Source: Escherichia coli (lineage in GTDB: Bacteria > Pseudomonadota > Gammaproteobacteria > Enterobacterales > Enterobacteriaceae). Taken from it: a stretch of 64,000 nucleotides of DNA. A program made the translations under genes and the position numbers. The first letter of the stretch is position 1. Each line of letters begins with the position of its first letter. Location of the stretch: NCBI RefSeq assembly GCF_024700885.2, contig NZ_CP117016.1, one strand, 5' to 3'. Shown here piece by piece: positions 10,885 to 52,705 of this stretch. A model generated the notes under the pieces. The model made no database searches. It saw only the letters and a program-made list of their open reading frames with translations, and was not told the origin of the DNA.

Positions 10885-10893
10885 GCGCAAACC

Positions 10894-10960
10894 GACCCGA
10901 AACAGGTTGAAATAAACCCGTTTCGGGTAGCACTACTATTAGAAATAGTTATCATTTTCA
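10894..10960 (+). promoter_or_regulatory. fyuA upstream control region: inverted repeat (cccgaaac/gtttcggg, 10896-10927) and an AT-rich Fur-box-like sequence (agaaatagttatcattttc, 10941-10959)
   Basis: Read directly in the 130-bp ybtE–fyuA intergenic region; fyuA/psn is known to be Fur- and YbtA-regulated. Confidence 0.35.
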
Positions 10961-11014
10961 ATTCACCATTGTCGGTATTTTTGGCGTTTCGCCGTCTTAC
11001 AGGGACTCACAACA

Positions 11015-13036
11015 ATGAAAATGACACGGCTTTATCCTCTGGCCTTGGGGGGATTATTGCTCCCCGCCATTGCTAATGCCCAGACTTCACAGCAAGACGA
11101 AAGCACGCTGGTGGTTACCGCCAGTAAACAATCTTCCCGCTCGGCATCAGCCAACAACGTCTCGTCTACTGTTGTCAGCGCGCCGGAATTAAGCGACGCC
11201 GGCGTCACCGCCAGCGACAAACTCCCCAGAGTCTTGCCCGGGCTCAATATTGAAAATAGCGGCAACATGCTTTTTTCGACGATCTCGCTACGCGGCGTCT
11301 CTTCAGCGCAGGACTTCTATAACCCCGCCGTCACCCTGTATGTCGATGGCGTCCCTCAGCTTTCCACCAACACCATCCAGGCGCTTACCGATGTGCAAAG
11401 CGTGGAGTTGCTGCGAGGCCCACAGGGAACGTTATATGGCAAAAGCGCTCAGGGCGGGATCATCAACATCGTCACCCAGCAGCCGGACAGCACGCCGCGC
11501 GGCTATATTGAAGGCGGCGTCAGTAGCCGCGACAGTTATCGAAGTAAGTTCAACCTGAGCGGCCCCATTCAGGATGGCCTGCTGTACGGCAGCGTCACCC
11601 TGTTACGCCAGGTTGATGACGGCGACATGATTAACCCCGCGACGGGAAGCGATGACTTAGGCGGCACCCGCGCCAGCATAGGGAATGTGAAACTGCGTCT
11701 GGCGCCGGACGATCAGCCCTGGGAAATGGGCTTTGCCGCCTCACGCGAATGTACCCGCGCCACCCAGGACGCCTATGTGGGATGGAATGATATTAAGGGC
11801 CGTAAGCTGTCGATCAGCGATGGTTCACCAGACCCGTACATGCGGCGCTGCACTGACAGCCAGACCCTGAGTGGGAAATACACCACCGATGACTGGGTTT
11901 TCAACCTGATCAGCGCCTGGCAGCAGCAGCATTATTCGCGCACCTTCCCTTCCGGTTCGTTAATCGTCAATATGCCTCAGCGCTGGAATCAGGATGTGCA
12001 GGAGCTGCGCGCCGCAACCCTGGGCGATGCGCGTACCGTTGATATGGTGTTTGGGCTGTACCGGCAGAACACCCGCGAGAAGTTAAATTCAGCCTACGAC
12101 ATGCCGACAATGCCTTATTTAAGCAGTACCGGCTATACCACCGCTGAAACGCTGGCCGCATACAGTGACCTGACCTGGCATTTAACCGATCGTTTTGATA
12201 TCGGCGGCGGCGTGCGCTTCTCGCATGATAAATCCAGTACACAATATCACGGCAGCATGCTCGGCAACCCGTTTGGCGACCAGGGTAAGAGCAATGACGA
12301 TCAGGTGCTCGGGCAGCTATCCGCAGGCTATATGCTGACCGATGACTGGAGAGTGTATACCCGTGTAGCCCAGGGATATAAACCTTCCGGGTACAACATC
12401 GTGCCTACTGCGGGTCTTGATGCCAAACCGTTCGTCGCCGAGAAATCCATCAACTATGAACTTGGCACCCGCTACGAAACCGCTGACGTCACGCTGCAAG
12501 CCGCGACGTTTTATACCCACACCAAAGACATGCAGCTTTACTCTGGCCCGGTCGGGATGCAGACATTAAGCAATGCGGGTAAAGCCGACGCCACCGGCGT
12601 TGAGCTTGAAGCGAAGTGGCGGTTTGCGCCAGGCTGGTCATGGGATATCAATGGCAACGTGATCCGTTCCGAATTCACCAATGACAGTGAGTTGTATCAC
12701 GGTAACCGGGTGCCGTTCGTACCACGTTATGGCGCGGGAAGCAGCGTGAACGGCGTGATTGATACGCGCTATGGCGCACTGATGCCCCGACTGGCGGTTA
12801 ATCTGGTCGGGCCGCATTATTTCGATGGCGACAACCAGTTGCGGCAAGGCACCTATGCCACCCTGGACAGCAGCCTGGGCTGGCAGGCGACTGAACGGAT
12901 GAACATTTCCGTCTATGTCGATAACCTGTTCGACCGTCGTTACCGTACCTATGGCTACATGAACGGCAGCAGCGCCGTCGCGCAGGTCAATATGGGTCGC
13001 ACCGTCGGTATCAATACGCGAATTGATTTCTTCTGA
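11015..13036 (+). CDS. fyuA: TonB-dependent outer-membrane receptor for ferric yersiniabactin / pesticin
   Basis: 673 aa with signal peptide, TonB-box region, and a C-terminal aromatic residue ending the beta-barrel (…RIDFF). Confidence 0.9.
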   Translation: MKMTRLYPLALGGLLLPAIANAQTSQQDESTLVVTASKQSSRSASANNVSSTVVSAPELSDAGVTASDKLPRVLPGLNIENSGNMLFSTISLRGVSSAQDFYNPAVTLYVDGVPQLSTNTIQALTDVQSVELLRGPQGTLYGKSAQGGIINIVTQQPDSTPRGYIEGGVSSRDSYRSKFNLSGPIQDGLLYGSVTLLRQVDDGDMINPATGSDDLGGTRASIGNVKLRLAPDDQPWEMGFAASRECTRATQDAYVGWNDIKGRKLSISDGSPDPYMRRCTDSQTLSGKYTTDDWVFNLISAWQQQHYSRTFPSGSLIVNMPQRWNQDVQELRAATLGDARTVDMVFGLYRQNTREKLNSAYDMPTMPYLSSTGYTTAETLAAYSDLTWHLTDRFDIGGGVRFSHDKSSTQYHGSMLGNPFGDQGKSNDDQVLGQLSAGYMLTDDWRVYTRVAQGYKPSGYNIVPTAGLDAKPFVAEKSINYELGTRYETADVTLQAATFYTHTKDMQLYSGPVGMQTLSNAGKADATGVELEAKWRFAPGWSWDINGNVIRSEFTNDSELYHGNRVPFVPRYGAGSSVNGVIDTRYGALMPRLAVNLVGPHYFDGDNQLRQGTYATLDSSLGWQATERMNISVYVDNLFDRRYRTYGYMNGSSAVAQVNMGRTVGINTRIDFF

Positions 13037-13042
13037 TTATTG

Positions 13043-13075
13043 TAAAAGGGATACCGAAAAGGTATCCCTTTTACA
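13043..13075 (+). terminator. Rho-independent terminator after fyuA
   Basis: Perfect hairpin aaaagggatacc-gaaa-ggtatccctttt immediately 3' of the fyuA stop. Confidence 0.6.
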
Positions 13076-13551
13076 CCACTAGTTAAAACCAGTAACTCAG
13101 CAGAGTCGCAAAAAATATTAATCCATAGTGATTATTTAAACAATGAAATTGCGATTAGGATAAATAGATTTAACTTTCTCGTTCCTTTCTCTCCTTATAC
13201 TAAAGAAATAATCATATCAAAATAAAAATTCACAACAGTGCAACATTAAAAAATACAACCAACAAACAATCCTATATACAAGGCACATCTCCAGAATATA
13301 AAAGCACAGACAAACAACCTAAAAAAAACAACCCCATACATATAAATTATTTTATAGGTAAAATAGATTATATATTCTCATAGCTACCACAAACTATACT
13401 AGCCTGAACTATATTTATTCTGCTGCAATCAATGCATACATAACACAAATATCACTCAGGTACACTACTCAAACCACGCTGGGATTTTTCCTCAAGTTAT
13501 AATCATCACCCCGAAAATCATTCGGCATTTACTCATTAAATAGTCACCCCA
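13076..13551. other. AT-rich non-coding spacer at the HPI right end
   Basis: About 470 bp of strongly AT-biased sequence with no ORF of 60 codons or more, in sharp contrast to the GC-rich ybt genes. Confidence 0.5.
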
Positions 13552-13606
13552 GGTGATGCTGCCAACTTACTGATTTAGTGTATGATGGTGTTTTTGAGGT
13601 GCTCCA

Positions 13607-13882
13607 GTGGCTTCTGTTTCTATCAGCTGTCCCTCCTGTTCAGCTACTGACGGGGTGGTGCGTAACGGCAAAAGCACCGCCGGACATCAGCGCTATCTCT
13701 GCTCTCACTGCCGTAAAACATGGCAACTGCAGTTCACTTACACCGCTTCTCAACCCGGTACGCACCAGAAAATCATTGATATGGCCATGAATGGCGTTGG
13801 ATGCCGGGCAACTGCCCGCATTATGGGCGTTGGCCTCAACACGATTTTACGTCACTTAAAAAACTCAGGCCGCAGTCGGTAA
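13607..13882 (+). CDS. insA: IS1 InsA
   Basis: 91 aa starting [24 protein letters not shown] (zinc finger plus HTH). Confidence 0.9.
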
Positions 13883-14304
13883 CCTCGCGCATACAGCCGG
13901 GCAGTGACGTCATCGTCTGCGCGGAAATGGACGAACAGTGGGGCTATGTCGGGGCTAAATCGCGCCAGCGCTGGCTGTTTTACGCGTATGACAGGCTCCG
14001 GAAGACGGTTGTTGCGCACGTATTCGGTGAACGCACTATGGCGACGCTGGGGCGTCTTATGAGCCTGCTGTCACCCTTTGACGTGGTGATATGGATGACG
14101 GATGGCTGGCCGCTGTATGAATCCCGCCTGAAGGGAAAGCTGCACGTAATCAGCAAGCGATATACGCAGCGAATTGAGCGGCATAACCTGAATCTGAGGC
14201 AGCACCTGGCACGGCTGGGACGGAAGTCGCTGTCGTTCTCAAAATCGGTGGAGCTGCATGACAAAGTCATCGGGCATTATCTGAACATAAAACACTATCA
14301 ATAA
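13801..14304 (+). CDS. insB: IS1 InsB (expressed as an InsAB' fusion by -1 frameshift)
   Basis: 167-aa ORF overlapping the insA 3' end in the -1 frame. Confidence 0.85.
13856..13864 (+). promoter_or_regulatory. IS1 programmed -1 ribosomal frameshift motif (A6C)
   Basis: ttaaaaaac lies in the insA/insB overlap. Confidence 0.6.
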
Positions 14305-14319
14305 GTTGGAGTCATTACC

Positions 14320-14645
14320 CCGTATTGCAGTGTTATATTCTTCGCTAAATCTTTTATTTCTTTTAATGTTGCGTGATCCTGCATAGTCATTGTGACTAAT
14401 GTTAATTTAGTCTGTTCAAGTTTGAGCGCATTAAAGACTTCTAAATTAATTGTCGACGTAACAATTAATAGATGCTTAATTTTATGCAATTCAAGCGCCC
14501 GAATAACAGGAAAGATGGCCATAGCATCGCCAATCTGATCGGGAATATGTATGACAACAAAGTCTGTTTTTTCAATATTAAAATTATAAGCTTTATAATC
14601 GTAGTAACTAAATGCAATACGTCTCAACAATGATACTAAAAACAT
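14320..14645 (-). pseudogene. yeeL: Glycosyltransferase family 9 (heptosyltransferase-like) gene fragment, 3'-truncated by IS1
   Basis: Minus-strand ORF (MFLVSLLRRIAF…IHIPDQIGDAMAIFPVIRALE…) runs into the IS1 right end; position upstream of shiA matches yeeL in K-12. Symbol recalled from memory, not verified. Confidence 0.5.
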
Positions 14646-14959
14646 AACTAACCTCGCCTCCCTACTGGTTATAATGCAATGCAGTCTATCAGAATCATCA
14701 GGGTGCAATTTTGTGCATATGCGGACTTTTATGTTTCATATCTCGAACCTGTGGGCCATCTGCTTAATCCTTAAACAACACCAGCAACTCCTGCGCTTTC
14801 ATCTTCCATCGAATTTTTCATGTTGCCGCTAATCAGCCATAAAATCATTTGCAGATGCGCTCTGTCGAGGTAGTCTCATAAGGTTCGTTTATAGATCGAC
14901 GGCAATGTGAGTTACCTTTTCCATACTAATTATAAAAAGACAGTACAAACAGGATCATT

Positions 14960-16276
14960 ATGGACTCCACGCTCATCTCCACTCGTCCCGATGAAGGGAC
15001 GCTTTCGTTAAGTCGCGCCCGACGAGCTGCGTTAGGCAGTTTCGCTGGTGCCGTCGTCGACTGGTATGATTTTTTACTCTATGGCATTACCGCCGCACTG
15101 GTGTTTAATCGCGAGTTTTTCCCGCAAGTAAGCCCGGCGATGGGAACGCTCGCCGCATTTGCCACCTTTGGTGTCGGCTTCCTTTTCCGACCGCTCGGCG
15201 GTGTCATTTTCGGTCACTTTGGTGACCGACTGGGACGTAAGCGCATGTTAATGCTGACCGTCTGGATGATGGGCATCGCGACAGCCTTGATTGGTATTCT
15301 TCCTTCATTCTCGACCATTGGGTGGTGGGCACCTATTTTGCTGGTGACACTGCGTGCCATTCAGGGATTTGCCGTCGGCGGCGAATGGGGAGGCGCAGCG
15401 TTGCTTTCCGTTGAAAGTGCGCCGAAAAATAAAAAAGCCTTTTACAGTAGCGGTGTACAAGTTGGCTACGGAGTAGGTTTACTGCTTTCAACCGGACTGG
15501 TTTCATTGATCAGTATGATGACGACTGACGTACAGTTTTTAAGCTGGGGCTGGCGCATTCCTTTCCTGTTTAGCATCGTACTGGTACTGGGAGCATTGTG
15601 GGTGCGCAATGGCATGGAGGAGTCCGCGGAATTTGAACAACAGCAACATAATCAAGCGGCCGCGAAAAAACGCATCCCGGTTATCGAAGCTCTGTTACGA
15701 CATCCCGGTGCTTTCCTGAAGATTATTGCGCTACGACTGTGCGAGTTGCTGACGATGTACATCGTTACCGCCTTTGCACTTAATTATTCAACCCAGAATA
15801 TGGGGTTACCGCGCGAACTTTTCCTTAATATTGGTTTGCTGGTAGGTGGATTAAGCTGCCTGACAATTCCCTGTTTTGCCTGGCTTGCCGATCGTTTTGG
15901 TCGCCGCAGGTTTTATATCACAGGTGCGTTAATCGGAATGTTGAGCGCATTTCCTTTCTTTATGGCGCTTGAAGCACAATCTATTTTCTGGATAGTTTTC
16001 TTCTCCATAATGCTGGCAAACATTGCGCATGACATGGTGGTGTGTGTGCAACAACCGATGTTTACCGAAATGTTTGGTGCCAGTTATCGCTATAGTGGCG
16101 CTGGAGTCGGTTATCAGGTTGCCAGTGTGGTTGGTGGTGGATTTACACCTTTTATTGCCGCTGCACTCATCACTTACTTTGCCGGGAACTGGCATAGCGT
16201 CGCCATTTATTTGCTGGCTGGATGCCTGATTTCCGCAATAACCGCTTTGTTGATGAAAGACAATCAACGCGCTTGA
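14960..16276 (+). CDS. shiA: Shikimate transporter (MFS)
   Basis: 438 aa, multi-pass membrane protein with MFS motifs (GHFGDRLGRKRM); conserved position upstream of amn. Confidence 0.85.
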   Translation: MDSTLISTRPDEGTLSLSRARRAALGSFAGAVVDWYDFLLYGITAALVFNREFFPQVSPAMGTLAAFATFGVGFLFRPLGGVIFGHFGDRLGRKRMLMLTVWMMGIATALIGILPSFSTIGWWAPILLVTLRAIQGFAVGGEWGGAALLSVESAPKNKKAFYSSGVQVGYGVGLLLSTGLVSLISMMTTDVQFLSWGWRIPFLFSIVLVLGALWVRNGMEESAEFEQQQHNQAAAKKRIPVIEALLRHPGAFLKIIALRLCELLTMYIVTAFALNYSTQNMGLPRELFLNIGLLVGGLSCLTIPCFAWLADRFGRRRFYITGALIGMLSAFPFFMALEAQSIFWIVFFSIMLANIAHDMVVCVQQPMFTEMFGASYRYSGAGVGYQVASVVGGGFTPFIAAALITYFAGNWHSVAIYLLAGCLISAITALLMKDNQRA

Positions 16277-16377
16277 TAGCCTGGCGAAGATCATCCGATC
16301 TTCGCCTTACACTTTTGTTTCACATTCCTGTGACATACTATCGGATGTGCGGTAATTGTATGGAACAGGAGACACAC

Positions 16378-17832
16378 ATGAATAATAAGGGCTCCGGTCT
16401 GACCCCAGCTCAGGCACTGGATAAACTCGACGCGCTGTATGAGCAATCTGTAGTTGCTTTACGCAACGCCATTGGCAACTATATTACAAGTGGCGAATTA
16501 CCTGATGAAAACGCCCGCAAACAAGGTCTTTTTGTCTATCCATCACTGACCGTAACTTGGGATGGTAGCACAACCAATCCCCCTAAAACGCGCGCATTTG
16601 GTCGTTTTACTCACGCAGGCAGCTACACCACCACGATTACTCGCCCTACTCTCTTTCGTTCGTATCTCAATGAACAACTTACGTTGCTGTATCAGGATTA
16701 TGGTGCGCATATCTCGGTGCAACCCTCGCAGCATGAAATCCCTTATCCTTATGTCATTGATGGCTCTGAATTGACACTTGATCGCTCAATGAGCGCTGGG
16801 TTAACTCGCTATTTCCCGACAACAGAACTGGCGCAAATTGGCGATGAAACTGCAGACGGCATTTATCATCCAACTGAATTCTCCCCGCTATCGCATTTTG
16901 ATGCGCGCCGCGTCGATTTTTCCCTCGCGCGGTTGCGCCATTATACCGGTACGCCAGTTGAACATTTTCAGCCGTTCGTCTTGTTTACCAACTACACACG
17001 TTATGTGGATGAATTCGTTCGTTGGGGATGCAGCCAGATCCTCGATCCTGATAGTCCCTACATTGCCCTTTCTTGTGCTGGCGGGAACTGGATCACCGCC
17101 GAAACCGAAGCGCCAGAAGAAGCCATTTCCGACCTTGCATGGAAAAAACACCAGATGCCCGCGTGGCATTTAATTACCGCCGATGGTCAGGGTATTACTC
17201 TGGTGAATATTGGCGTGGGACCGTCAAATGCTAAAACCATCTGCGATCATCTGGCAGTACTACGCCCGGATGTCTGGTTGATGATTGGTCACTGTGGTGG
17301 CTTACGTGAAAGCCAGGCCATTGGCGATTATGTACTTGCACATGCTTATTTACGCGATGATCACGTTCTTGATGCGGTTCTGCCGCCCGATATTCCTATT
17401 CCAAGCATTGCTGAAGTGCAACGTGCGCTTTATGACGCTACCAAGTTAGTCAGCGGCAGGCCCGGTGAGGAAGTCAAACAGCGGCTGCGTACAGGTACTG
17501 TGGTAACCACAGATGACAGGAACTGGGAATTACGTTACTCAGCTTCTGCACTTCGTTTTAACTTAAGCCGGGCCGTGGCAATTGATATGGAAAGTGCAAC
17601 CATTGCCGCGCAAGGATATCGTTTCCGCGTGCCATACGGGACACTACTGTGTGTTTCAGATAAACCGTTGCATGGCGAGATTAAACTTCCCGGCCAGGCT
17701 AACCGTTTTTATGAAGGCGCTATTTCCGAACACCTGCAAATTGGCATTCGGGCGATCGATTTGCTGCGCGCAGAAGGCGACCGACTGCATTCACGTAAAT
17801 TACGAACCTTTAATGAGCCGCCGTTCCGATAA
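16378..17832 (+). CDS. amn: AMP nucleosidase
   Basis: 484 aa from the internal ATG (MNNKGSGLTPAQ…); the ORF-track N-terminal extension from 16222 overlaps the shiA 3' end and is discounted. Confidence 0.9.
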   Translation: MNNKGSGLTPAQALDKLDALYEQSVVALRNAIGNYITSGELPDENARKQGLFVYPSLTVTWDGSTTNPPKTRAFGRFTHAGSYTTTITRPTLFRSYLNEQLTLLYQDYGAHISVQPSQHEIPYPYVIDGSELTLDRSMSAGLTRYFPTTELAQIGDETADGIYHPTEFSPLSHFDARRVDFSLARLRHYTGTPVEHFQPFVLFTNYTRYVDEFVRWGCSQILDPDSPYIALSCAGGNWITAETEAPEEAISDLAWKKHQMPAWHLITADGQGITLVNIGVGPSNAKTICDHLAVLRPDVWLMIGHCGGLRESQAIGDYVLAHAYLRDDHVLDAVLPPDIPIPSIAEVQRALYDATKLVSGRPGEEVKQRLRTGTVVTTDDRNWELRYSASALRFNLSRAVAIDMESATIAAQGYRFRVPYGTLLCVSDKPLHGEIKLPGQANRFYEGAISEHLQIGIRAIDLLRAEGDRLHSRKLRTFNEPPFR

Positions 17833-18174
17833 TAAGTTATGAACCTTCTTATCAGAAATAGATGTGAAGGATTAAGTAAGACATCTGGCAAATAGCCTGC
17901 AATAAACGCGGGCTGTTTGCTTCCTTGGGCAGATGCGAGTTTTATTATCGTCTTAATGATTTCCACATATTAAAAGCAAGTATGCTTTCAAAACACAATT
18001 ATAAAAAATCCCGCCAACAACATTAGTTTTTATAAAATTAAATATAAGATTATGGCTTTAGAATATTTTTATTTCTAATAGACGAGATTTTTCCTGTTAT
18101 GATATAATATGCTGAATTAACACATGTTAACGATTTACCAGTAATGTAAATAAATTTTCGAGGAGATCATTCCA

Positions 18175-18891
18175 GTGGGACGTAAATGGGCCAATATTGT
18201 TGCTAAAAAAACGGCTAAAGACGGTGCAACGTCTAAAATTTATGCAAAATTCGGTGTAGAAATCTATGCTGCTGCCAAACAAGGTGAACCCGATCCAGAA
18301 TTAAACACATCTTTAAAATTCGTTATTGAACGTGCAAAGCAGGCACAAGTTCCAAAGCACGTTATTGATAAAGCAATTGATAAAGCCAAAGGCGGTGGAG
18401 ATGAAACGTTCGTACAGGGACGTTATGAAGGCTTTGGTCCTAATGGCTCAATGATTATTGCTGAGACATTGACTTCAAATGTTAACCGTACGATTGCTAA
18501 CGTTCGCACAATTTTCAATAAAAAAGGCGGCAATATCGGAGCGGCAGGTTCTGTCAGCTATATGTTTGACAATACGGGTGTGATTGTATTTAAAGGAACA
18601 GACCCTGACCATATTTTTGAAATTTTGCTTGAAGCTGAAGTTGATGTTCGTGATGTAACTGAAGAAGAAGGTAATATTGTTATTTATACTGAACCTACTG
18701 ACCTTCATAAAGGAATCGCGGCGCTAAAAGCAGCTGGAATCACTGAGTTCTCAACAACAGAATTAGAAATGATTGCTCAATCTGAAGTTGAGCTTTCCCC
18801 AGAAGATTTAGAAATCTTTGAAGGGCTTGTTGATGCCCTTGAAGATGACGACGATGTACAAAAAGTTTATCATAACGTCGCAAATCTCTAA
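18175..18891 (+). CDS. yeeN: YebC/PmpR-family transcriptional regulator
   Basis: 238 aa; GAGGAG RBS 9 nt upstream of a GTG start. Confidence 0.85.
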
Positions 18892-18900
18892 TTATATGTT

Positions 18901-18931
18901 AAAGAAATCTGTCTTTATGGCAGATTTCTTT
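18901..18931 (+). terminator. Hairpin terminator after yeeN
   Basis: aaagaaatctg…cagatttcttt inverted repeat directly after the stop. Confidence 0.45.
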
Positions 18932-19345
18932 AATCTCATATAATCCTTATAAAAATATAATGTTTAACTCGTCATATTGCTTATAAAAAATCCCCGTTCC
19001 CAGAGAAATAATATTTATTAAAATGGCAGGTCTTCTTTTTCTGATTACCGAAGACAAAGTGGCAATTACGTATAGTTTCCCGATAAAGACGCGACAGCTA
19101 CATCCCGCATAAGGCATTTTTCTCTTTATCTTTGTACGGTACTTCATGGAACAGAATTTTTGACCTTGTGAATCGTGATGTCTGTTGGGGAGGAGCAATT
19201 TGCTCACTGAAGCGTGAGACTCGATTAAGCGCACGAAACACAGAAATCAAAAAACCCGGCCACTTTTTTACAAACTGACCGGGTAAAAATAATTTTTATT
19301 TTTTAACTGCCTTGAGACTCATAGAGATGTCTCAAAACTAAAATT

Positions 19346-19421
19346 TGGCTCCTCTGACTGGACTCGAACCAGTGACATACGGATTAACAGTCCGCCGTTC
19401 TACCAACTGAACTACAGAGGA
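19346..19421 (-). tRNA. asnW: tRNA-Asn
   Basis: 76-nt reverse complement of the tRNA-Asn sequence ending CCA; differs from the two plus-strand copies at one D-arm position. Confidence 0.9.
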
Positions 19422-19521
19422 ATCGTGAGAACGAGGCGAATATTAGCGATGCCCACCCACAATGTCAAAGCCTGTTTTTTAAATTTGAAATCGTTTGCTG
19501 AAATAATCTGCATTTTGTTGT

Positions 19522-21009
19522 TTATTCCGACACAACTGGCTTTTTTTCACACTTTTGCGGTTCGGGTCGAGGGTATTTCCATAGCCAACGTCCAGTAACC
19601 ATTCGCCAGTAAAACAGCACGGCCCGCACAGCCCAGTCGGCAAACATTCCCATCCAGACACCAACCACACCCCAGCCAAGCATGATGCCCAGCACATAAC
19701 CGACGACAACCCGGCAACCCCACATGCTCAACATAGAAACCCACATAGCGTAACGGGCGTCACGAGCCCCCTTAAATCCAGCGGGTAGCACCCATGAGGC
19801 GGACCAAATAGGCATAAATAAAGCATTTAGCCAAATCAGAATCACAACGACATGTTTAACCTGTGGATCCTGGGTGTAAAACGATGCCATAACCCCGGCA
19901 AAGGGAGCCGTTAGCCAGGCGATGGCCGTTAATCCAAGAGTGGACAGCCAGAAGACATGCCGCAACTGAATCTCTGCTTGCGCTATCTGCCCTACCCCTA
20001 ACCTTCGGCCTGTAATGATCGTAGAAGCAGAGCCGAGCGCACTTCCGGGTAAGTTGATAAGAGCCGCAATTGAAAACGCGATAAAATTTCCGGCAATAAC
20101 ACTGGTCCCCATCCCGGCAACGAACATTTGGGTTAATAACCGACCACTGGTAAATAACACTGATTCGACACTCGCTGGAATACCAATCCCCATGACTTCC
20201 CAGATAATGCTAAAATTCAGCGGTTTAAAATAGCTCTTTAACGAAATCCTTAGCGCAGGATTAAAACCAATCGCCAGCACCCACAAAATTGCAACTGCGC
20301 CAATATAACGAGAAATGGTTAAACCCAACCCAGCCCCGACAAATCCCAGTCCCGGCCAGGAGAAAAGGCCGTAAATCAATATGCCGCTAATAATAATATT
20401 AAGAATATTCAGGCTACCGTTAATCAGTAGCGGTATTTTCGTATTCCCTGCACCACGAAGTGCCCCGCTACCAATCAAAGTGATGGCAGCTGCTGGATAA
20501 CTGAGTACCGTCAGCTCCAGATAAGTCAACGCCAGTGCTTTAACTTCTGTCGTGGCATCACCCGCGACGAAATCAATAATTTGCTCGCCAAAATGATGAA
20601 TAAGCGTTGCCAACAGTACGGCAAACAACGTCATGATCACCAATGACTGCCGCGTCGCCACCCTCGCTCGTCGTCGATCCCGCTTACCGAGACTAAATGC
20701 CACAACGACAGTAGTACCAAGATCGATAGCAGCAAAAAAAGCCATAATGACCATATTGAAGCTGTCCGCCAATCCCACGCCGGCCATCGCATCTTTTCCC
20801 AGCCAGCTGACCAGAAAAGTGCTCAGAACCCCCATCAACAGGACACAGGCATTCTCCATGAAGATAGGAACAGCAAGCGGGGTTATCTCGCGCCAGAACA
20901 ACACTTTGTAGCTCTTGCGTTTAGCGTGCCAGCGAGTGCCGTGAACAACCTGGCGTAAAGCAGAGGAGATATTCAAAGCCGACCTTAATTGCAGAAAGTG
21001 AAACCACAT
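19522..21009 (-). CDS. yeeO: MATE-family efflux transporter
   Basis: 495 aa from the MWFHFLQLRS start; multi-pass membrane protein. The upstream 51-codon extension in the ORF track is discounted. Confidence 0.8.
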   Translation of the reverse strand: MWFHFLQLRSALNISSALRQVVHGTRWHAKRKSYKVLFWREITPLAVPIFMENACVLLMGVLSTFLVSWLGKDAMAGVGLADSFNMVIMAFFAAIDLGTTVVVAFSLGKRDRRRARVATRQSLVIMTLFAVLLATLIHHFGEQIIDFVAGDATTEVKALALTYLELTVLSYPAAAITLIGSGALRGAGNTKIPLLINGSLNILNIIISGILIYGLFSWPGLGFVGAGLGLTISRYIGAVAILWVLAIGFNPALRISLKSYFKPLNFSIIWEVMGIGIPASVESVLFTSGRLLTQMFVAGMGTSVIAGNFIAFSIAALINLPGSALGSASTIITGRRLGVGQIAQAEIQLRHVFWLSTLGLTAIAWLTAPFAGVMASFYTQDPQVKHVVVILIWLNALFMPIWSASWVLPAGFKGARDARYAMWVSMLSMWGCRVVVGYVLGIMLGWGVVGVWMGMFADWAVRAVLFYWRMVTGRWLWKYPRPEPQKCEKKPVVSE

Positions 21010-21169: not shown

Positions 21170-21245
21170 TCCTCTGTAGTTCAGTCGGTAGAACGGCGGA
21201 CTGTTAATCCGTATGTCACTGGTTCGAGTCCAGTCAGAGGAGCCA
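21170..21245 (+). tRNA. asnU: tRNA-Asn
   Basis: TCCTCTGTAGTTCAGTCGGTAGAACGGCGGACTGTTAATCCGTATGTCACTGGTTCGAGTCCAGTCAGAGGAGCCA. Confidence 0.95.
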
Positions 21246-23577: not shown

Positions 23578-23653
23578 TCCTCTGTAGTTCAGTCGGTAGA
23601 ACGGCGGACTGTTAATCCGTATGTCACTGGTTCGAGTCCAGTCAGAGGAGCCA
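23578..23653 (+). tRNA. asnV: tRNA-Asn
   Basis: Identical 76-nt tRNA-Asn sequence. Confidence 0.95.
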
Positions 23654-25796: not shown

Positions 25797-26540
25797 TTAT
25801 AGCAGTGCCAGCAGGAAGACCAGTTCACCAAGCTCTATAGCAGCTCCCAGCGTATCGCCGGTTTGCCCGCCCAGCGTACGTTTGAGAAGCTGACCGAGGA
25901 TGAAAATCGCCACCATCGTCACCACCATAGCAGCCACACCATGCATACCCGGCAATAATACGGCAGCAAAAATAGCGGCTAAGCCGAGTGTGACGCAGGT
26001 TTGTCGCCCATCAATTTTGCCAATGAACACATTGCCAAGCCCTTCTTCCCGGGCATAACGATGACGATACATCAATAATGCGGCAGTCCCGCGGCTGACC
26101 GCACATGCTGCCGCCAGCGATGCAAGGATCGGTTCGCCACGCAGAGCCAACTCGCTTAATACCAGAATCTTTGCCAGTACAACAAAAATCAATGCCAGAC
26201 CGCCATGGGTGCCTAAACGGCTATCACGCATGATTTCCAACATGCGATCGCGGCTACGTGCAGAAAATACGCCATCACAGGTATCGGCGAGGCCGTCTAG
26301 GTGGAATCCCCCGGTCATCAGCGCCAGCACAAGTACGCTAAACAGTGCCGCCAGTGGTACGCCACACCATGCCTGCAGCACCATGAAGACCAGCCCGCTA
26401 ATCGCGCCAAGCAATAATCCAATTAAAGGAAAAGTAATAATACCGCGAGAATAATGCTCGAAATCCAGTCCCTGGGACCAGCGACGCAGTACAGGCAGAC
26501 GCGTAATAAATGAGAGCATCGCCCAAAATAATTTACTCAT
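25797..26540 (-). CDS. cobS: Cobalamin (5'-phosphate) synthase
   Basis: 247 aa from MSKLFWAML; membrane protein; start overlaps the cobU stop. Confidence 0.85.
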
Positions 26541-27082
26541 TTGATTTTTACTCCAATACCCGAAACCACCAGCCATACTTCATTTGCCGCAGCGGCCAGC
26601 TGCTGATTTACCCGCCCGGCAATATCACGAAAATGTCGTGCCAGACGACTCTCCGGCACAATCCCCATTCCCACTTCGTTAGTCACTAATACAACCTTTG
26701 CGGGGCAACGTTGGCAGGCAGCAATCAACGACTGAATCTCAGCATTAATCGCCTGTTCCATCGCCTGATAATCCCATTCATCAGGGTCTTTATCGCCGCC
26801 ATAATCAAACAACAGATTAGTCACCATTGTGGTAACGCATTCCAGCAACACAGCTTCATGCGGGTTAATGTCTGCATAAATTAATTCATCAAGATGTTGC
26901 CAACGCTCCACCGTGCGCCAGTGCGCCGGACGGCCTTGCCGATGATGTTCTATCCGTGCAGCCATCTCGCCATCAAGGATTTGCGAGGTGGCGATATACA
27001 GAACCTGTGAAGAGTCCCCAATAAGCGCCTCTGCGTGGCGACTCTTCCCGCTCCGTGCGCCCCCCGTCACCAAAATCATCAT
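26537..27082 (-). CDS. cobU: Adenosylcobinamide kinase / adenosylcobinamide-phosphate guanylyltransferase
   Basis: 181 aa with P-loop GGARSGKS. Confidence 0.9.
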
Positions 27083-28570
27083 ACCGACTCCTGATTCAAT
27101 TGTATGATGGTATTCATTGAACAGAACAATGGATCCCCCACCATTGCTGACCGCAAAACATTTACACGATCAATACTGCGCGTAATATAATTAAAAATCC
27201 AGCATTCTCAATCCATTACGAAAGAAGATGGCATTGTGGAATAGCCAGACTTCCTCGTGTTAACGTCCGACAAAATGCGTCATTGACAGCGGTTTCTGTG
27301 GATTGACACATTTCATTCAGATAATGAATTAATGCTACTGCCGGACCAACCAGCAAACGGGCATTGTGTTCTGAAATCCAGGCTATTGATTCAACGTCAG
27401 CGACAGATCTGCGCTGTAAAAGAACTTGTAAAACAACGCAATAGAATTATCCGGAATGGTGGCGACTATGCACTAGAACACCACAATTTCGCTCTCTCGG
27501 TAAGGCACTGTCACAGCATTCAACAGAATGTGACTTGCCAGATTTATTAGCGCCACCAGATGTTTAACCGGGTAACCACGACCCAGTCGGGGATATATTC
27601 CATCTTCTCGCTGACATCATCAAGAATAAAAAGGTTTATCACACTCAGAGCAACGTTCTTCAGCAGGCGGGATAATTCTTCAACATTTAAAAGATGTGTT
27701 ATTAAAGGCATACAAACTGGACGTATTGTATTTTCTTTTGGTGGTTGACCTAAGGTAGCAGTTTATCCTGATGCGCTGAGATTTCTGTAATATCTACGTC
27801 AACATTCTCCTCGAATAGAAAATGCAGCCTCGGCAAGTGATTCACATTTTTTAACAAAACGTTGTTAGCGTGCCATTTTCAGAAGCTCTCCAAGAAAGCG
27901 AATTCTTTTCTCAAATTCTGCATTCTCAGACACAGCTTTCTACTCCATGGCAATGGCCCAAATACGAAGTTGCTCAGGATCATTAGTGGTGCTGAGAAGT
28001 TAAATAACCATGCGGAGTACCACTCGTCATCACGTATTTATATATCATGAAGCTATTGTTGTGTTTTGTACATCAGTAGATGTATTCTGATATACTCCTT
28101 TTGCTAGACATAACCTTTCACCTGCTTGCAAAGCTTCTGTGTTCTGACATTGCCAAATTGTTGCAATTCTGTATCCAGCCTTCTTTCAGTCATAGCTTCG
28201 GGCCGCGATAAGACTCACTGATCTGACCCTGATTCCTCTTGCAGACTTTATAGACCAATTAAAATGCAGTTTCTGCAGGTCAACGTCTGACCATCATTGT
28301 CATCACTCTGGCCATTAGAGTAACCTTCTGCATTCATCCTTTTGTAAAAAGTTTATGTCAGTATCAGCAATTAACCGGACCTGATACTGATATGAGTCTT
28401 ACCGCATATACGGTCAATTTCAGCAATTAATTACATTATCCACGCCAAAGTGTTTGTCATCGCAATGATGGTACCTTCTTTCAGACACCATTTTTTCAAC
28501 TCCGTTTTCCACGGACCGCACTCTTATGTCAAGAGTGCGGTGATCCTACCCACGTAATATGGACACAGGC

Positions 28571-29393
28571 CTAAGCGAGGTTCTTGTTTTCAAATTGTTC
28601 CGGACTGAGGCCGCCACACCAACTGTGCCGCCGCCACCGATTGTAATCACATTCGATATAATTAAACACCGTTGCCCGCATTATTTCCCGGCTGATAAAG
28701 TGTTCTCCATGGATACATTCCACTTTCAGCGAATGAAAGAAGCTTTCCACGCAGATTATGCCGCTTCAGTTGCGCCTGATAATCTGCTGAACAGTACTGG
28801 CCTCCACGGTCCGTGTGAACGATAACGTTCCGGGGCCTCTTACGCCGCCATAGCGCCATCTGCAGGGCATCGCAGGCCAGTTGCGCCGTCATGCGTGGCG
28901 ACATTGACCAGCCAATAACGGCACGTGACCACAGGTCAATGACCACTGCCAGATACAGCCAGCCTTCATCTGTACGTAAGTACGTGATGTCTCCTGCCCA
29001 CTTCTGGTTCGGGCCACTGGCGTAAAAATCCTGCTCCAACAGATTTTCTGACACAGGCAGGCCGTGTGCGCGGTAGCTGACCGGGCTGAACTTCCGGGAG
29101 GCCTTTGCCCTCAGTCCCTGACGGCGCAGGCTTGCCGCCACGGTTTTTACGTTAAAGGGGTAACCCTGAGCACGCAGTTCATCCGTCAGGCGTGGGGCAC
29201 CGTAACGCTGTTTTGACCGGGTAAAAGCCGCGAGGACAACGCTGTCGCAGTGTTGGCGGAACTGCTGACGCGTGCTTATCCTTGTCCGCCGCTGACACCA
29301 CGTATACCAGCCGCTGCGGGCCACCCGGAGCACGCGGCACATTGCTTTGATGCTGAACTCAGCCTGATGTTTTTCAATAAAGACATACTTCAT
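28571..29393 (-). pseudogene. insF: IS3 OrfB transposase disrupted by an internal out-of-frame deletion
   Basis: Translation matches InsF up to …KRHNLRG, then about 13 residues are missing and the remaining C-terminus ([18 protein letters not shown]…ENKNLA) continues in another frame. Confidence 0.8.
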
Positions 29394-29689
29394 TTCAGGC
29401 GCTTCGCGAAGTATGTCGCGGCCTTTTGGAGGATAGCCAGCTCTTCATCCCGTTCTGCCAGCTGGCGTTTGAGACGTGCAATCTCGGTAGACATCTCCAG
29501 TTCACGTTCAGAAGACGTCTGCTGATTTTGCTGTTTACTGCGCCAGTTGTAGAGCTGTGATTCATACAGGCTGAGTTCACGGGCTGCGGCAGTAACACCG
29601 ATGCGTTCAGCAAGCTTCAGGGCTTCACTGCGAAATTCAGGCGAATGCTGTTTACGGGGTTTTTTACTGGTTGATACTGTTTTTGTCAT
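29390..29689 (-). CDS. insE: IS3 OrfA transposase subunit
   Basis: 99 aa starting [25 protein letters not shown]. Confidence 0.85.
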
Positions 29690-29775
29690 GTGAGTCACCT
29701 CTGACTGAGAGTTTACTCACTTAGCCGCGTGTCCACTATTGCTGGGTAAGATCACCTTATTGCTGCGCTGATAAT

Positions 29776-30606
29776 ATGGACCGCAAACCTATTGAAGATG
29801 TGATCTTCGAAATTAATAACTTTATCTCGCTCGGTGGTCGCACCATTGTTGATGCCACAGGGTCTGAGTCTATCGGACGAGATGCGCAGGCATTACGAGA
29901 AGTCGCATTAAAAACAGGTCTGAATATTGTTGCTTCCTCCGGTCCCTACCTGGAAAAATTTGAAAGCCAGAGAATTCATAAAACGGTTGATGAACTGGCG
30001 GCAACGATTGATAAAGAATTGAATCAAGGGATTGGCGATACGGATATTCGTGCCGGAATGATCGGTGAAATAGGTGTCTCACCGACATTTACCGAAGCCG
30101 AGCATAACAGCTTGCGGGCTGCCTCGCTGGCACAGATTAACAATCCTCATGTGGCGATGAATATTCACATGCCGGGCTGGCTTCGTCGCGGTGATGAAGT
30201 ACTCGACATTGTGTTAGGTGAAATGGGCGTCTCGCCAAATAAAGTCTCTCTCGCACACTCGGATCCGTCAGGAAAAGACGTGGCGTATCAGCGGAAAATG
30301 CTTGATAAGGGTGTCTGGCTGGAATTCGACATGATTGGCCTAGACATTACCTTCCCGAAAGAGGGAATAGCGCCAGGGGTGCAGGAGACTGCCGATGCCG
30401 TCGCTCATCTCATTGAGTTGGGATACGCCGATCAGCTTGTTCTCAGCCACGATGTCTTCCTTAAACAAATGTGGGCTAAAAATGGCGGTAATGGCTGGGG
30501 ATTTGTTCCAGATGTTTTTCTGGCCTATCTGGCGGAGCGCGGCGTCGATAAAACGATCCTCAAAAAACTCTGTATCGATAATCCCGGACGATTATTGACC
30601 GCATAA
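29776..30606 (+). CDS. Phosphotriesterase-related protein (amidohydrolase fold), probably N-terminally truncated by the IS3 insertion
   Basis: 276 aa with php/yhfV-like fold motifs; the reading frame is open back to the IS3 end at 29755 and lacks the N-terminal HxH metal-binding motif. Confidence 0.6.
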   Translation: MDRKPIEDVIFEINNFISLGGRTIVDATGSESIGRDAQALREVALKTGLNIVASSGPYLEKFESQRIHKTVDELAATIDKELNQGIGDTDIRAGMIGEIGVSPTFTEAEHNSLRAASLAQINNPHVAMNIHMPGWLRRGDEVLDIVLGEMGVSPNKVSLAHSDPSGKDVAYQRKMLDKGVWLEFDMIGLDITFPKEGIAPGVQETADAVAHLIELGYADQLVLSHDVFLKQMWAKNGGNGWGFVPDVFLAYLAERGVDKTILKKLCIDNPGRLLTA

Positions 30607-30613
30607 AACCATT

Positions 30614-30639
30614 ATCCCCCGGCACACTGCGCCGGGGGA
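30614..30639. terminator. Bidirectional hairpin terminator
   Basis: tcccccggc-acactgc-gccggggga between convergent ORFs. Confidence 0.5.
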
Positions 30640-30646
30640 TGTCAAT

Positions 30647-30990
30647 TAATACCCCGCCGTTAAATCATCCACCAAGCGCGAGTCGGATGCGCCGTACAAC
30701 TCACCATCCGACCCAACCATAATGCTTTGCGTGCTGCCCATCGCCTCATTCAGCGCCACTTTCTGACCTTTTGCTTCCAGCAGCTTGAGCGTATCCGGAC
30801 TAAACCCTTTTCAACACGCAGCTCGTCCGGCAACCACTGATGGTGGAAACGAGGCGCATTGGTCGCTTCGGCAACATTCATTCCACAATTGATGCTGTTC
30901 ACCACCATTTGCAGCACGGTAGTGATGATTCAGCTACCGGTAACAAAGTGAGTACATAAAGGCCATACTGTCACGAACAGTGCAAAAGTG
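30647..30990 (-). pseudogene. ggt: Gamma-glutamyltranspeptidase C-terminal fragment with frameshift and nonsense lesions
   Basis: Minus-strand translation …SIMVGSDGELYGASDSRLVDDLTAGY* and, in a shifted frame, …IITTVLQMVVNSINCGMNVAEATNAPRFHHQWLPDELRVEKG, matching the GGT small-subunit C-terminus. Confidence 0.6.
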
Positions 30991-31029
30991 GCTCTTCCGC
31001 AACCTAGGTGAAGATTTTCATGCCAGTGG

Positions 31030-32650
31030 ACTCATTACCCTCCGCCTAAGTAGTTCAAATCCGGCTCGACCATACATCTGGCGTATCAGCACCTTCAGGC
31101 GATTTACATGACCTTCGACAACACCATTACTCCAGCGACTGCTGATTGCCTCACATATAGCCGCAGCATCAGCTTCCATCCCCGCAGCTACGCACCGAAG
31201 TTCTGCTGAGCCGCTTTCGTGGACTCGAGTGAACCAGCTGCTTAGCTGTGATTTATTTTAGGTTTTCAGAATACGGTAGAACTCGAGTACCAGTTGCTGT
31301 GCTATTTTCAACTCCGGTTCTTTTTCACACATCAGACTAATAAATCGGGATGCATAATTTTCTTCGCCCCTGATTATTCTCCAGGGCATCAACCAGCGGC
31401 TTACCCGGAACACTGAAGGAAGTCTTGCGGCAGTAGTAACCGGTGGGTTCCAGCCTTTACGCCATTTGGCAACAGTATCCCTGACGATGGTTTCACTGCC
31501 TGTCCCCCCCCCTGGGCCACCATTTCCCGCCATATCCGGCTGGCATTATAATTACCACTTTCTCGTTGCTCTTTTAACCACTCCCTCCATGGGTCCAGAA
31601 GCCCTCGCTTTGGAGGCCGGGTTGACATTTCAGGGAATGTTCCTGAACGCACCCAGCGACTGACTGTCACTCGCGACAGGCCTGTAATACGGGATATTTC
31701 CCTGAAACTACATCCCTTGTTATGCAGGGCCATAACCTCTGTCCAATGCTGATGCCGTTTTTTGCGGGTTTGCTGTTTAAGGCGTTCCGGACGACGGAGC
31801 GATGCTACAGGCACAGATATTTCTGGCTCAGGTGATTTCTTCAGTGATAACTCTCTGACAACAAGACGTATCAGAGGCATATGTCTGTACATCATTCGTT
31901 CAGGCTCATCACCAATATTTTTTAGCAGGTGCCATCGATCGGCCACCTGTCTGGCCTGAGGTGCACCTTCACGTGCTGCTGTCGCATAGACTCCACTGCG
32001 ATCACGCGAGACAACCTGTATTTCCGGATATTTTCTGAACCAGGTCGCCAGCGTACGCTGATCACGGCCGGGAAGCAGGACGAGGGGACGGTGAGTATCA
32101 AGATTGACTATTAACATACCGCAGCAGTGGCCCCGATGCCACGCCCACTCATCAATACCGACATGAGGCGCGCCTGACTGTTTCGTCTCCGGGGTATTGA
32201 TAACCCTGCGAAGAAGAGTATCAGCACTGCAACGGAGACCCGCTGCCGTTGCAGCCCGTTTTCCAGCCTCACCTCCAGCTATTAATCCCAGTTGACGTTG
32301 TAAATTTTGTAACGCCTGTGAAGACTGTTGGTGTGAACCGGCGAAGGGAGCAAGCGACTCGGCAAAAATTTTACGTGAACAAGCTGGGTTACGGCAGTAC
32401 CAGTGGCGGACGGAAAATACAAGCCATAGCGTCTGTCCTGATCAGGGTAGATGCTGTATCCGGCGCCGACAACAACTATGAACAGAGTCGCTACGCTTAA
32501 AGCATTCAGGACATTGTGCTGTTTTGCGTTTTCCGTGGAGATGGAGGGTTATACCGTCAGAGCTAATAATTTGTCGACTGCATCGCCATCCGCAAGGTAA
32601 CTGTAGAAGTGTCTTAAGAGAGTGCATTGGGTTGCCCATAACTTAAAACA
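31030..32650 (-). pseudogene. ISL3-family transposase remnant (multiple frameshifts)
   Basis: Minus-strand fragments: zinc-finger N-terminus (CPECFKRSDSVHSCCRRR, 32442-32639), central region (VVSRDRSGVYATAAREGAPQARQVADRWHLLKN, 31401-32117) and C-terminus (SNGVVEGHVNRLKVLIRQMYGRAGFEL, about 31040-31130), split across three frames. Element boundaries are approximate. Confidence 0.55.
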
Positions 32651-32922
32651 GCTTAGATCCTTGTTCGCCAGAAAGTTTCATCCATTTTCTTCCACCCAGG
32701 TTGCGGAAGAACCACTTTTCATCCGTCGTTGACAGATGTGAAGTATGCGGGAGAAAAAGTGAATATCTAACTGTAATAACTCAGACCGGTACGAGTACTC
32801 GGGGCGTCTACAATCATTCAGGGCAAAGTGCTAAAATTTCTCTATCCCGGGATGCCCCTACCAACGCAGCACTCCCGGAGATATCATTACAGCTCTGCAA
32901 CTGATTTCCGCGACTGAACCGC

Positions 32923-52054: not shown

Positions 52055-52132
52055 TGATGCGCCGCGCGATAAATGCACTCTATCTTGTGCGATAAATGGC
52101 ATCCACGCGGCGTTTCATTATTTGAAAAAGAA

Positions 52133-52705
52133 TTACATTTCAGGTTGCGTTATGACAGTCCCAACAGGGTGATAGCGGTAGATCGTTGACAGTCCAATAT
52201 CATAGATAATTGCCAGCCGCTTTCTGTCATACCCTTTCTGGAGCAATCTTGCGATCTGCTCATGCTGCTCCTTCGTCAGTTTCGGGCGACGTCCTCCAAC
52301 TCTTCCTTGTGCTCGCGCAGCAGCCAGTCCAGCCAGCGTGCGCTCAACTATCAGTTCACGCTCCATTTCTGCCAGTGCACCCATCATATGAAAAAAGAAC
52401 CTTCCCATCGGAGTGCTGGTATCGATTGAATCCGTCAGACTGCGAAAATTGACACCTTTTGCGCGTAGCTCTTCTGTGAGAGCAATGAGGTGTTTCATTC
52501 TTCTACCCAACCGATCCAGCTTCCAGACCACCAATGTATCCCCTCTTTTAAGGCACTTTAAAGCGCGTTTCAGGCCTGGTCGTTCCGACTTGGTTCCGCT
52601 CATTTTGTCCTCAAAAATCTGTTCACATCCTGCGCACATTAATGCATTGCGTTGCAAATCTGTGTTTTGGTCATTTGTTGACACACGTATGTAGCCAATC
52701 AGCAT
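52133..52705 (-). CDS. Serine recombinase, DNA invertase of the Gin/Pin/Hin/Cin family
   Basis: 190 aa from MLIGYIRVSTNDQNTDLQRNAL (catalytic Ser in YIRVST), C-terminal HTH; AAGGGAG RBS. The ORF-track extension to 52834 is discounted. Confidence 0.8.
   Translation of the reverse strand: MLIGYIRVSTNDQNTDLQRNALMCAGCEQIFEDKMSGTKSERPGLKRALKCLKRGDTLVVWKLDRLGRRMKHLIALTEELRAKGVNFRSLTDSIDTSTPMGRFFFHMMGALAEMERELIVERTLAGLAAARAQGRVGGRRPKLTKEQHEQIARLLQKGYDRKRLAIIYDIGLSTIYRYHPVGTVITQPEM

Follow-up and report, generated by a model that had tools for sequence, protein, structure and literature searches.

Gene remnants and mobile elements at the locus

The window analysed here is a 64,000-nucleotide stretch of Escherichia coli DNA (assembly GCF_024700885.2, contig NZ_CP117016.1). 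Between a defective IS3 and a dead ISL3-family element it carries a fragment of a phosphotriesterase (PTE)-family gene, PTE', and the 3' tail of the gamma-glutamyltranspeptidase gene, ggt' (Table 1). The original prediction had assigned PTE', ggt' and the ISL3 remnant to these same families, and matches to Pfam PF02126, PF01019 and PF01610 bear it out, with both the ggt-like and the ISL3-like translations aligning to their families. Its picture of a junkyard of decaying, IS-shaped fragments at an island edge also holds. The pieces are adjacent as it described but not co-oriented in tandem, PTE' being on the + strand and ggt' and the ISL3 transposase on the − strand. RefSeq annotation by PGAP lists the same three pseudogenes (PTE, ggt and ISL3) in identical sequence from many genomes, and no Rfam families were found in the region.

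Table 1. Coordinates of features at the locus (window positions; a dot marks features given without strand)
Feature	Position	Strand	Details
Defective IS3	28541..29754	-	Both terminal inverted repeats; IRL end abuts PTE codon 62
5'-truncated PTE-family pseudogene (PTE')	29755..30606	+	Codons 62-344 kept; first ATG 29776
GC-rich, terminator-like hairpin between convergent PTE and ggt 3' ends	30614..30640	.	12-pair stem, 9 GC pairs; T-rich tail on - strand
ggt 3' tail (ggt')	30646..30944	-	~100 codons plus stop; Pfam PF01019 and K-12 ggt identity
Spacer between end of ggt homology and ISEc38-like terminus	30945..30968	.	24 bp; identical in S88
Dead ISEc38-like ISL3-family IS	30969..32734	-	1766 bp; transposase pseudogene 31018-32639; terminal inverted repeats

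The open reading frame of PTE' (276 aa, 29776-30606) matches PF02126 over profile positions 37-297 of 298 (E=1.9e-42; 146.2 bits against a cut-off of 22.4), and its frame is open back to 29755, where the IS3 end abuts. Codons 1-61 of the intact 344-aa protein encoded in strain S88 have no counterpart in the fragment, and with them the HEH metal-binding motif (S88 residues 23-25) is gone; the metal-ligand role of such HxH motifs is established for the amidohydrolase superfamily. The barrel is therefore incomplete, with N-terminal strand 1 and the HxH ligands missing, so that the predicted phosphotriesterase-like gene is right as to family but not as to being a gene. The label "php-like" holds at the level of the family only. 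Over its full length, the intact S88 protein aligns with Pmi1525 of Proteus mirabilis (PDB 3RHG/4QSF; E=3.7e-173 against 3RHG), whereas the match to E. coli Php (YhfV, PDB 1BF6) covers residues 77-340 (E=1.3e-24), indicating that Php, which belongs to the same PF02126 family and amidohydrolase TIM-barrel superfamily and lies at a different locus, is only a distant paralogue. PTE' is instead the ortholog of STM3550 and Pmi1525, the last gene of the rikA cluster. In protein searches, PTE identity jumps from 99-100% within E. coli to 91% or less with nothing between. One divergent E. coli allele at 91% identity was considered as a clue to a second locus and was rejected because it sits at the same cobU site.

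The ggt tail matches PF01019 with E=3.1e-8 (33.3 bits against a cut-off of 27). With ~100 of about 580 codons left, no intact ggt is present; the original prediction had correctly recognised a C-terminal tail but put its length at ~110 codons, compared with the ~98-103 found here. Over 295 bp the fragment is 92.5% identical (BLAST) to the 3'-terminal 295 bp of K-12 ggt, and identity lies between 91.5 and 93% for every E. coli ggt sampled. By contrast, identity to Citrobacter and Salmonella ggt is 81-83% by BLAST and 80-82% in a trimmed MAFFT alignment, in which K-12 ggt itself is 83-84% identical to the same genes. Substitutions on the branch leading to the fragment fall at all codon positions in the MAFFT alignment, whereas six of the seven on the K-12 branch are at third positions. 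The predicted CGA-to-TGA-type nonsense codon and frameshift were both recovered, as a TGA at 30936-30938 (CGG in K-12, CGA in Citrobacter) and a 1-bp deletion in an A-run, and there is a 12-bp slip deletion at the 5' edge of the fragment. The intergenic hairpin is also present in S88. The idea that it is homologous to sequence downstream of K-12 ggt, and hence that PTE once stood there, was rejected, as no homology was found and each species has its own hairpin.

The ISL3 transposase matches PF01610 (DDE_Tnp_ISL3; E=3.4e-12), and the element is 95.6% identical in nucleotides over 1,764-1,766 bp to annotated copies of ISEc38, a name taken from how RefSeq labels copies on plasmids ("ISL3-like element ISEc38 family transposase"). 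Positions 30969 and 32734 mark the limits of homology, and the inverted-repeat arms (30968-31010 and 32693-32735) are 43 nt long and 79% complementary. Codons 66 and 460 of the 540-codon transposase gene are in-frame stops, and a +2-bp change at 31513-31514 shifts the frame; the gene is thus split as predicted, although over two frames rather than three. An 8-bp target-site duplication is a hallmark of the ISL3 family. None was found at the ends of this element, where the flanks are GGCCATAC and GATGTGAA, and the 24-bp spacer on its ggt' side has no similarity to K-12 or Citrobacter ggt or to ISEc38 copies. Because target duplications are absent and this 24-bp orphan separates ggt' from the ISL3 end, the two may have come to adjoin by something other than a plain insertion. 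The window copy shares its termini and inverted repeats with ISEc38, but it is dead and without target duplication, and it is fixed at one chromosomal site in ~2,500 genomes.

An IS3 element stands in place of 4,840 bp

The IS3 that flanks PTE', an element missing from the original prediction, accounts for the truncation of the PTE gene. It is ~98% identical to K-12 IS3A with both ends present, and a 44-bp internal deletion in orfB near 28755 explains its length (1214 bp + 44 bp = 1258 bp); PGAP annotates it as "IS3 family transposase, frameshifted". No 3-bp target duplication was found at its ends, the flanks GCG and CCT being different. In S88 the IS3 is absent and 4,840 bp stand there instead: window positions 26001-28541 correspond to S88 9814-12354 and positions 29755-33343 to S88 17195-20781, both at 98.3% identity, with the IS3 between them. 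An apparent IS3 scar in K-12 at the left junction was also considered and was rejected, since K-12 continues across this junction exactly like S88 and the shared breakpoint is an artefact of the IS3 in the window.

The IS3::PTE' junction is present in 491 of 5,426 genomes. Chimeric queries representing a simple IS3 insertion at each deletion endpoint were used in a search for intermediates with IS3 at one endpoint only, and none of the 5,426 genomes covered at least 80% of either query. The 4,840-bp deletion may have arisen via recombination between two IS3 copies or via a one-step adjacent deletion.

The intact cluster at cobU and its counterpart at the ggt locus

The order in S88 is cobU-cbiP'-IS4'-tnp'-IS66'-rikA-GATase-DMT-PTE-ggt'-ISL3'. 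S88 is one of ~1,900 complete E. coli genomes, another being APEC O1, in which all four genes persist at the cobU position along with this ggt tail and this inactivated ISL3; a rikA-to-PTE query is covered to 80% or more in 1,915 genomes. Independent IS hits were found inside the rikA cluster of other strains. The position of PTE as last gene of the cluster is accordingly seen in the intact allele at this site in S88 and the ~1,900 genomes; the three upstream genes are deleted in the window. In S88 the block is bracketed by an IS66-family remnant on the left and ISL3 on the right; in the window the corresponding pair is IS3 and ISL3, and no duplications were found. With two different families at its ends, the block is no classical composite transposon.

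The gene order of the intact E. coli cluster is the same as that of rikA-STM3548-STM3549-STM3550 in Salmonella Typhimurium, STM3547-3550 being the rikA cluster of Salmonella (PMC13432705). In Citrobacter and Salmonella, the rikA, amidotransferase, DMT-transporter and PTE genes converge on ggt; in Citrobacter and S. diarizonae, the PTE gene encodes 344 aa and the convergent ggt is full-length and lies beside yhhA-ugpQCE, the same position that ggt occupies in K-12. Thus, whereas the Salmonella and Citrobacter cluster lies beside a working ggt, the E. coli cluster lies at cobU with a scrap of ggt. Window positions 29755-30939 align without a break to the ggt loci of Citrobacter and S. diarizonae over 1,186-1,196 bp at 75.5-77.5% nucleotide identity, indicating that PTE' and ggt' form a single contiguous 1.19-kb block, collinear with the Citrobacter/Salmonella locus down to the intergenic spacing. 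In S88 the block collinear with Citrobacter extends over 4.47 kb, from rikA to ggt' (S88 locus coordinates 13906-18378). The donor context of the PTE and ggt pieces, for which the original prediction had proposed a search, would therefore be a rikA-to-ggt locus like that of Citrobacter and Salmonella. Because the ggt tail is much closer to E. coli ggt than to that of Citrobacter or Salmonella, the block points to the ggt locus of an Escherichia lineage. In a scan of species representatives, the rikA cluster was not found next to ggt in any Escherichia, so this donor locus is reconstructed rather than observed.

A probable relocation and a later deletion

Taken together, these results indicate that the 29-32.7 kb stretch is very probably a non-functional fossil with a history of two steps, relocation followed by IS3-linked deletion, and IS elements are the likely cause of both. 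In the older step, a 4.47-kb piece of an Escherichia-lineage chromosome would have been placed beside cobU, at the left edge of a cobU/CP4-44-type island, whether by an intragenomic move or via a close relative. The piece would have begun ~95 bp before rikA, taken in that gene with those for the amidotransferase, the DMT transporter and the PTE-family protein, and ended ~300 bp inside the convergent 3' end of ggt, with its left edge abutting an IS66-family end and its right edge beside the ISEc38-like ISL3, which would have been inactivated since via the shared Q460 stop. The resulting arrangement is common to ~2,500 complete E. coli genomes. The younger step, in the 491 genomes that include that of the window, would have brought in the IS3 copy and removed the 4,840 bp, and with them two older transposase remnants, rikA, the amidotransferase and transporter genes and the first 61 PTE codons with the HxH ligands, after which the IS3 itself would have lost 44 bp. 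The ggt tail is thus a hitch-hiking scrap that records the origin of the operon, a small one for sugar metabolism, and not a separately captured gene.

The original prediction suggested, by contrast, repeated IS-mediated capture at the integrase-proximal end of the island, with PTE, ggt' and ISL3 arriving separately. The packing of several IS families (IS4', IS3, ISL3 and IS110') within 5 kb and the absence of target duplications could be read in this way. However, PTE and ggt' are collinear with one Citrobacter/Salmonella locus, spacing included, and the ~1,900 genomes still have both, along with the other genes of the operon, so that what the window adds is loss; nor is an integrase or integrase pseudogene annotated from cobU (27 kb) to the end of the window (64 kb). 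Serial capture is accordingly very improbable. Hardly more credible, in our view, is that the block was recently acquired horizontally, whether from the chromosome of Citrobacter, of Salmonella or of some other genus with the ggt-PTE arrangement. The closest non-E. coli PTE proteins are those of Citrobacter (89% aa), S. bongori (88%) and S. diarizonae (87%), within a Salmonella/Citrobacter range of 86-89%, and the arrangement of the cluster beside ggt was seen only in these genera. Nucleotide identity of the cluster to Citrobacter, on the other hand, is only 74-78%, about what core genes show (76-83% for the flanking yhhY, yhhA, ugpQCE and ggt), and the higher identity of the ggt tail to E. 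coli ggt also argues against such an import.

It could also be reasoned that the truncated PTE frame starting at ATG 29776 is a live gene, either neofunctionalised or expressed from signals adjacent to the IS3. The frame is intact over its 276 codons, it differs from the intact S88 gene at 7 nt in 852 bp (5 synonymous and 2 non-synonymous), and the junction is fixed in 491 genomes. However, barrel strand 1 with its HEH metal ligands is missing, no promoter-like site was found between the IS3 and the ATG of PTE', the other genes of the operon have been deleted, and so small a number of changes is better explained by the deletion being recent than by selection. A live gene is therefore most unlikely, and as judged from the sequence, nothing in the fossil region is predicted to be expressed or functional. 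The two-step history, one relocated segment and then a deletion, corrects the reading of the locus as a product of serial capture.

The cobU island and the rikA operon in E. coli

The region, whose pseudogenes RefSeq already flags, represents ordinary IS-driven decay in a known island, that of cobU/CP4-44. The cobU island (PAI-CFT073-cobU, GI-CFT073-cobU) and CP4-44 of K-12 occupy the same site downstream of cobU, after a cbiP remnant, and share a backbone of YeeP GTPase, IsrC, Ag43, YeeR/S/T and CbeA/CbtA.

We tentatively suggest, as a possibility somewhat short of an even chance, that the only copy of the rikA-PTE operon in E. coli is the ancestral operon of the Escherichia-lineage ggt locus, carried into the cobU island by IS66-family and ISEc38-like elements before yhhZ-yrhA-yrhB replaced the original at ggt. 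If so, a core metabolic operon would have been "rescued" onto a pathogenicity-type island and would now be being lost again, lineage by lineage. That the E. coli rikA cluster lies within the cobU island, its origin given away by a scrap of ggt, is a point absent from the 2026 rikA paper, in which ggt goes unmentioned (PMC13432705). Functional studies of the rikA cluster in E. coli should weigh that it is intact in about one third of complete genomes and has suffered repeated IS hits. The IS3::PTE' junction, for its part, provides a clean lineage marker among complete genomes. Finally, while CP4-44 in K-12 has lost the whole rikA-ggt'-ISL3 part, the version in the window keeps its right end, in which just codons 62-344 of the last gene of the rikA-STM3550 cluster are retained.

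Composition of the fragment region

Profile searches and RefSeq pseudogene annotation recovered all three families named in the original prediction, and because the ggt-like and ISL3-like translations align to their families, the observation of a true junkyard of gene fragments stands. The php-like gene does belong to the phosphotriesterase (PTE) family (PF02126) but is a fragment rather than a whole gene: the 276-aa ORF at 29776-30606 matches the profile (E=1.9e-42) from position 37 on only and is without the HEH metal ligands, and no promoter-like site was found upstream of it. The intact E. coli PTE protein aligns over nearly its full length with Pmi1525 of Proteus mirabilis (PDB 3RHG; E=3.7e-173); its relation to E. 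coli Php (1BF6) is no closer than that of a remote paralogue.

The gamma-glutamyltranspeptidase match is above cut-off on the minus strand (30750-30917). The ggt tail carries the expected nonsense codon and frameshift, although it spans ~98-103 codons rather than ~110. Its defects are a TGA where K-12 ggt has CGG (TGG in S88, an E. coli strain with the intact cluster; CGA in Citrobacter), a 1-bp deletion in an A-run, present in S88 too, and, at the 5' edge, the loss of 12 bp between two GGTAGC repeats. Several pieces on the minus strand (31018-32117) match DDE_Tnp_ISL3, within an element 95.6% identical to plasmid copies annotated ISEc38. Measured against an undamaged ISEc38 transposase gene of 540 codons, it is interrupted by stops at codons 66 and 460 and by a 2-bp insertion (31513-31514); the transposase is thus broken as proposed, but over two frames with two stops instead of three frames. 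The codon-460 stop is the only lesion of the S88 copy, indicating that it is the oldest. The pieces are not co-oriented in tandem, their orientations being different.

None of the components is new, and all of them carry pseudogene annotation already, RefSeq labelling identical sequences in many genomes 'phosphotriesterase-related protein, missing N-terminus', 'gamma-glutamyltransferase, frameshifted, missing N-terminus' and 'ISL3 family transposase, frameshifted, internal stop'. Given the state of the PTE fragment, the broken ggt tail and ISL3 transposase, and the lack of any Rfam match in the region, function anywhere in 29755-32734 is unlikely. What is mildly new is limited to taking the ggt scrap as a sign of where the E. 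coli rikA cluster originated.

Features of the window around cobU
Feature	Position	Strand	Remark
IS1A	~13600-14650		L050 4208-5246; beside truncated glycosyltransferase family 9 gene
tRNA-Asn (n=3)	19349-19421, 21170-21242, 23578-23650
cobU	26537-27082	-
cbiP C-terminal remnant, IS4-family fragment	27216-27574		directly downstream of cobU
Hairpin CCACGGACCGCACTCTTATGTCAAGAGTGCGGTCCGTGG	28498-28541		S88 L053 12311-12360
IS3	28541-29754		both ends present
PTE fragment	29755-30606	+
ggt tail	30646-30944	-
24-bp segment	30945-30968		between ggt homology and ISEc38-like end
ISL3 element	30969-32734	-	43-nt imperfect inverted repeats
Zinc-ribbon gene	32923-33333
IS110-family element	33344-34508		internal stop (PGAP)
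Zinc-ribbon gene	34497-34895
IS102 RNA (IsrC sRNA)	42255-42458		Rfam, 253 bits; upstream of Ag43 gene, as in K-12
Truncated cbtA, then prophage module	~52060-64000

PTE and ggt fragments derive from one block

When one genome per bacterial species was scanned with the PTE fragment, its closest relatives were in Citrobacter (89% aa) and Salmonella diarizonae (87%). At the DNA level 29755-30939 forms one unbroken ~1.19-kb alignment to these loci, crossing the PTE stop and the intergenic spacer and ending within ggt. In Citrobacter portucalensis the order is yhhY-orf-[PfkB/DeoR kinase]-[GATase1-like]-[YdcZ-type DMT]-[PTE, 344 aa], convergent with a full-length ggt that is followed by yhhA-ugpQ-ugpC-ugpE. 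This is the same housekeeping ggt locus as in K-12, where yhhZ-yrhA-yrhD-yrhB stand in place of the four-gene cluster. In Salmonella this cluster is STM3547-3550; a recent study identified STM3547 as the ribose kinase RikA, the remaining three being uncharacterised (PMC13432705).

Using the Citrobacter rikA-to-PTE sequence as query against E. coli complete genomes, we found matches in 2,167 genomes (at least 80% of the query in 1,915), all at ~75.7% identity, and every copy examined lies at cobU. S88 reads cobU-cbiP'-IS4'-tnp'-IS66'-rikA-GATase-DMT-PTE(344 aa)-ggt'-ISL3'-zinc ribbon, the same order as in the window except that the operon is whole. The stretch that S88 and Citrobacter have in common (L053, the S88 locus, 13906-18378) begins right after the IS66-family end and ends 295 bp into ggt; the 24-bp segment beyond it is identical in S88 and matched nothing else among the sequences compared. 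The window is 98.3% identical to S88 on either side of IS3 and lacks S88 12355-17194 (4,840 bp). The resulting junction of IS3 with the PTE fragment occurs in 491 of 5,426 genomes, and ~2,531 carry a ggt tail at least 95% identical, counts consistent with one another and with that of the cluster.

K-12 has lost the whole segment, and in other strains the cluster has been hit independently by IS3 or ISVsa5 or carries stop codons. The rikA cluster is undergoing repeated inactivation in E. coli, and these lesions fit weak selection on it. Strain EC1722-1 (L059) and further hits show rikA interrupted by an intact IS3, ISVsa5 within the cluster and an internal stop in DMT.

Origin of the block

BLAST gives the ggt tail 92.5% identity to K-12 ggt, against 81-83% to the Citrobacter/Salmonella genes; after MAFFT alignment and trimming, identity to the latter is 80-82% for the tail and 83-84% for K-12 ggt. 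Resident ggt genes of E. coli genomes without the fragment are uniformly 91.5-93% identical to it, and no allele among those sampled was noticeably closer. Differences were polarised with four outgroups, the first five boundary columns being set aside. About 10 fragment-specific changes fall across all codon positions, indicating neutral decay, while six of the seven K-12-specific changes are third-position, indicating purifying selection. Between K-12 and Citrobacter the flanking core genes are 76-83% (nt) and 83-93% (aa) identical, much as the cluster is to its Citrobacter counterpart (74-78% nt, 80-94% aa). Taken together, ggt identities, change polarity and cluster divergence place the donor on the Escherichia branch, with a split later than the Citrobacter/Salmonella separation and no later than the diversification of today's E. 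coli ggt alleles. An Escherichia genome with the cluster beside ggt turned up neither in the species-representative scan nor in the protein search. The block may have moved within one genome or by way of a close relative with the help of a mobile element.

Rather than the repeated IS capture originally suggested, the region records the relocation of a single operon end and, later, a deletion associated with IS3. The boundaries of the relocated piece were probably made by the IS66-family and ISEc38-like elements. IS3, whose IRL end abuts the PTE frame at 29755 and which lacks 44 bp within orfB relative to K-12 IS3A, would have caused the later 4,840-bp loss, through either recombination of two IS3 copies or adjacent deletion. 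Neither IS3 nor ISL3 has a target duplication, with which both routes are compatible, and no single-IS3-insertion intermediate was found in the 5,426-genome collection. The PTE fragment agrees with the S88 gene at all but 7 of 852 nt (5 of the differences synonymous, 2 non-synonymous), so the deletion is young relative to the strain split. The left IS3 junction lies inside a perfect hairpin that is uninterrupted in S88 and K-12, possibly reflecting target preference or coincidence.

Genomic setting

The site is PAI/GI-cobU of ExPEC and CP4-44 in K-12. The window is part of an E. coli chromosome, and strain MLI114 matches it at 100% over 8000-29000 and 29400-33000. From the right end of the yersiniabactin island (ybtE, fyuA) the order is shiA-amn-yeeN-asnW-yeeO-asnU-cbl-nac-asnV-ldtA-cobT-cobS-cobU, then the cbiP remnant, the IS4-family fragment and the region itself. 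Beyond it lies a CP4-44-type backbone (zinc-ribbon genes, YfjI, YeeP GTPase, IsrC, Ag43, YeeR/S/T-like, CbeA/CbtA). The annotation shows no integrase between cobU and the window end (27-64 kb), which does not bear out the proposed integrase-proximal position.

The IS1A copy marks the junction of the fyuA end of the yersiniabactin island with shiA. The cbiP (cobalamin biosynthesis) and IS4 remnants, common to K-12 (yeeH/yoeG region), S88 and the window, look like a scar from cbi gene loss in E. coli. The IS110-family element is inserted between two zinc-ribbon genes that adjoin in S88, which is without it. At the window end, truncated cbtA is followed by an invertase-type serine recombinase and a contractile-tail module (tail fibre, baseplate, tape measure, sheath), and this island toxin gene appears to be the insertion point of a prophage.
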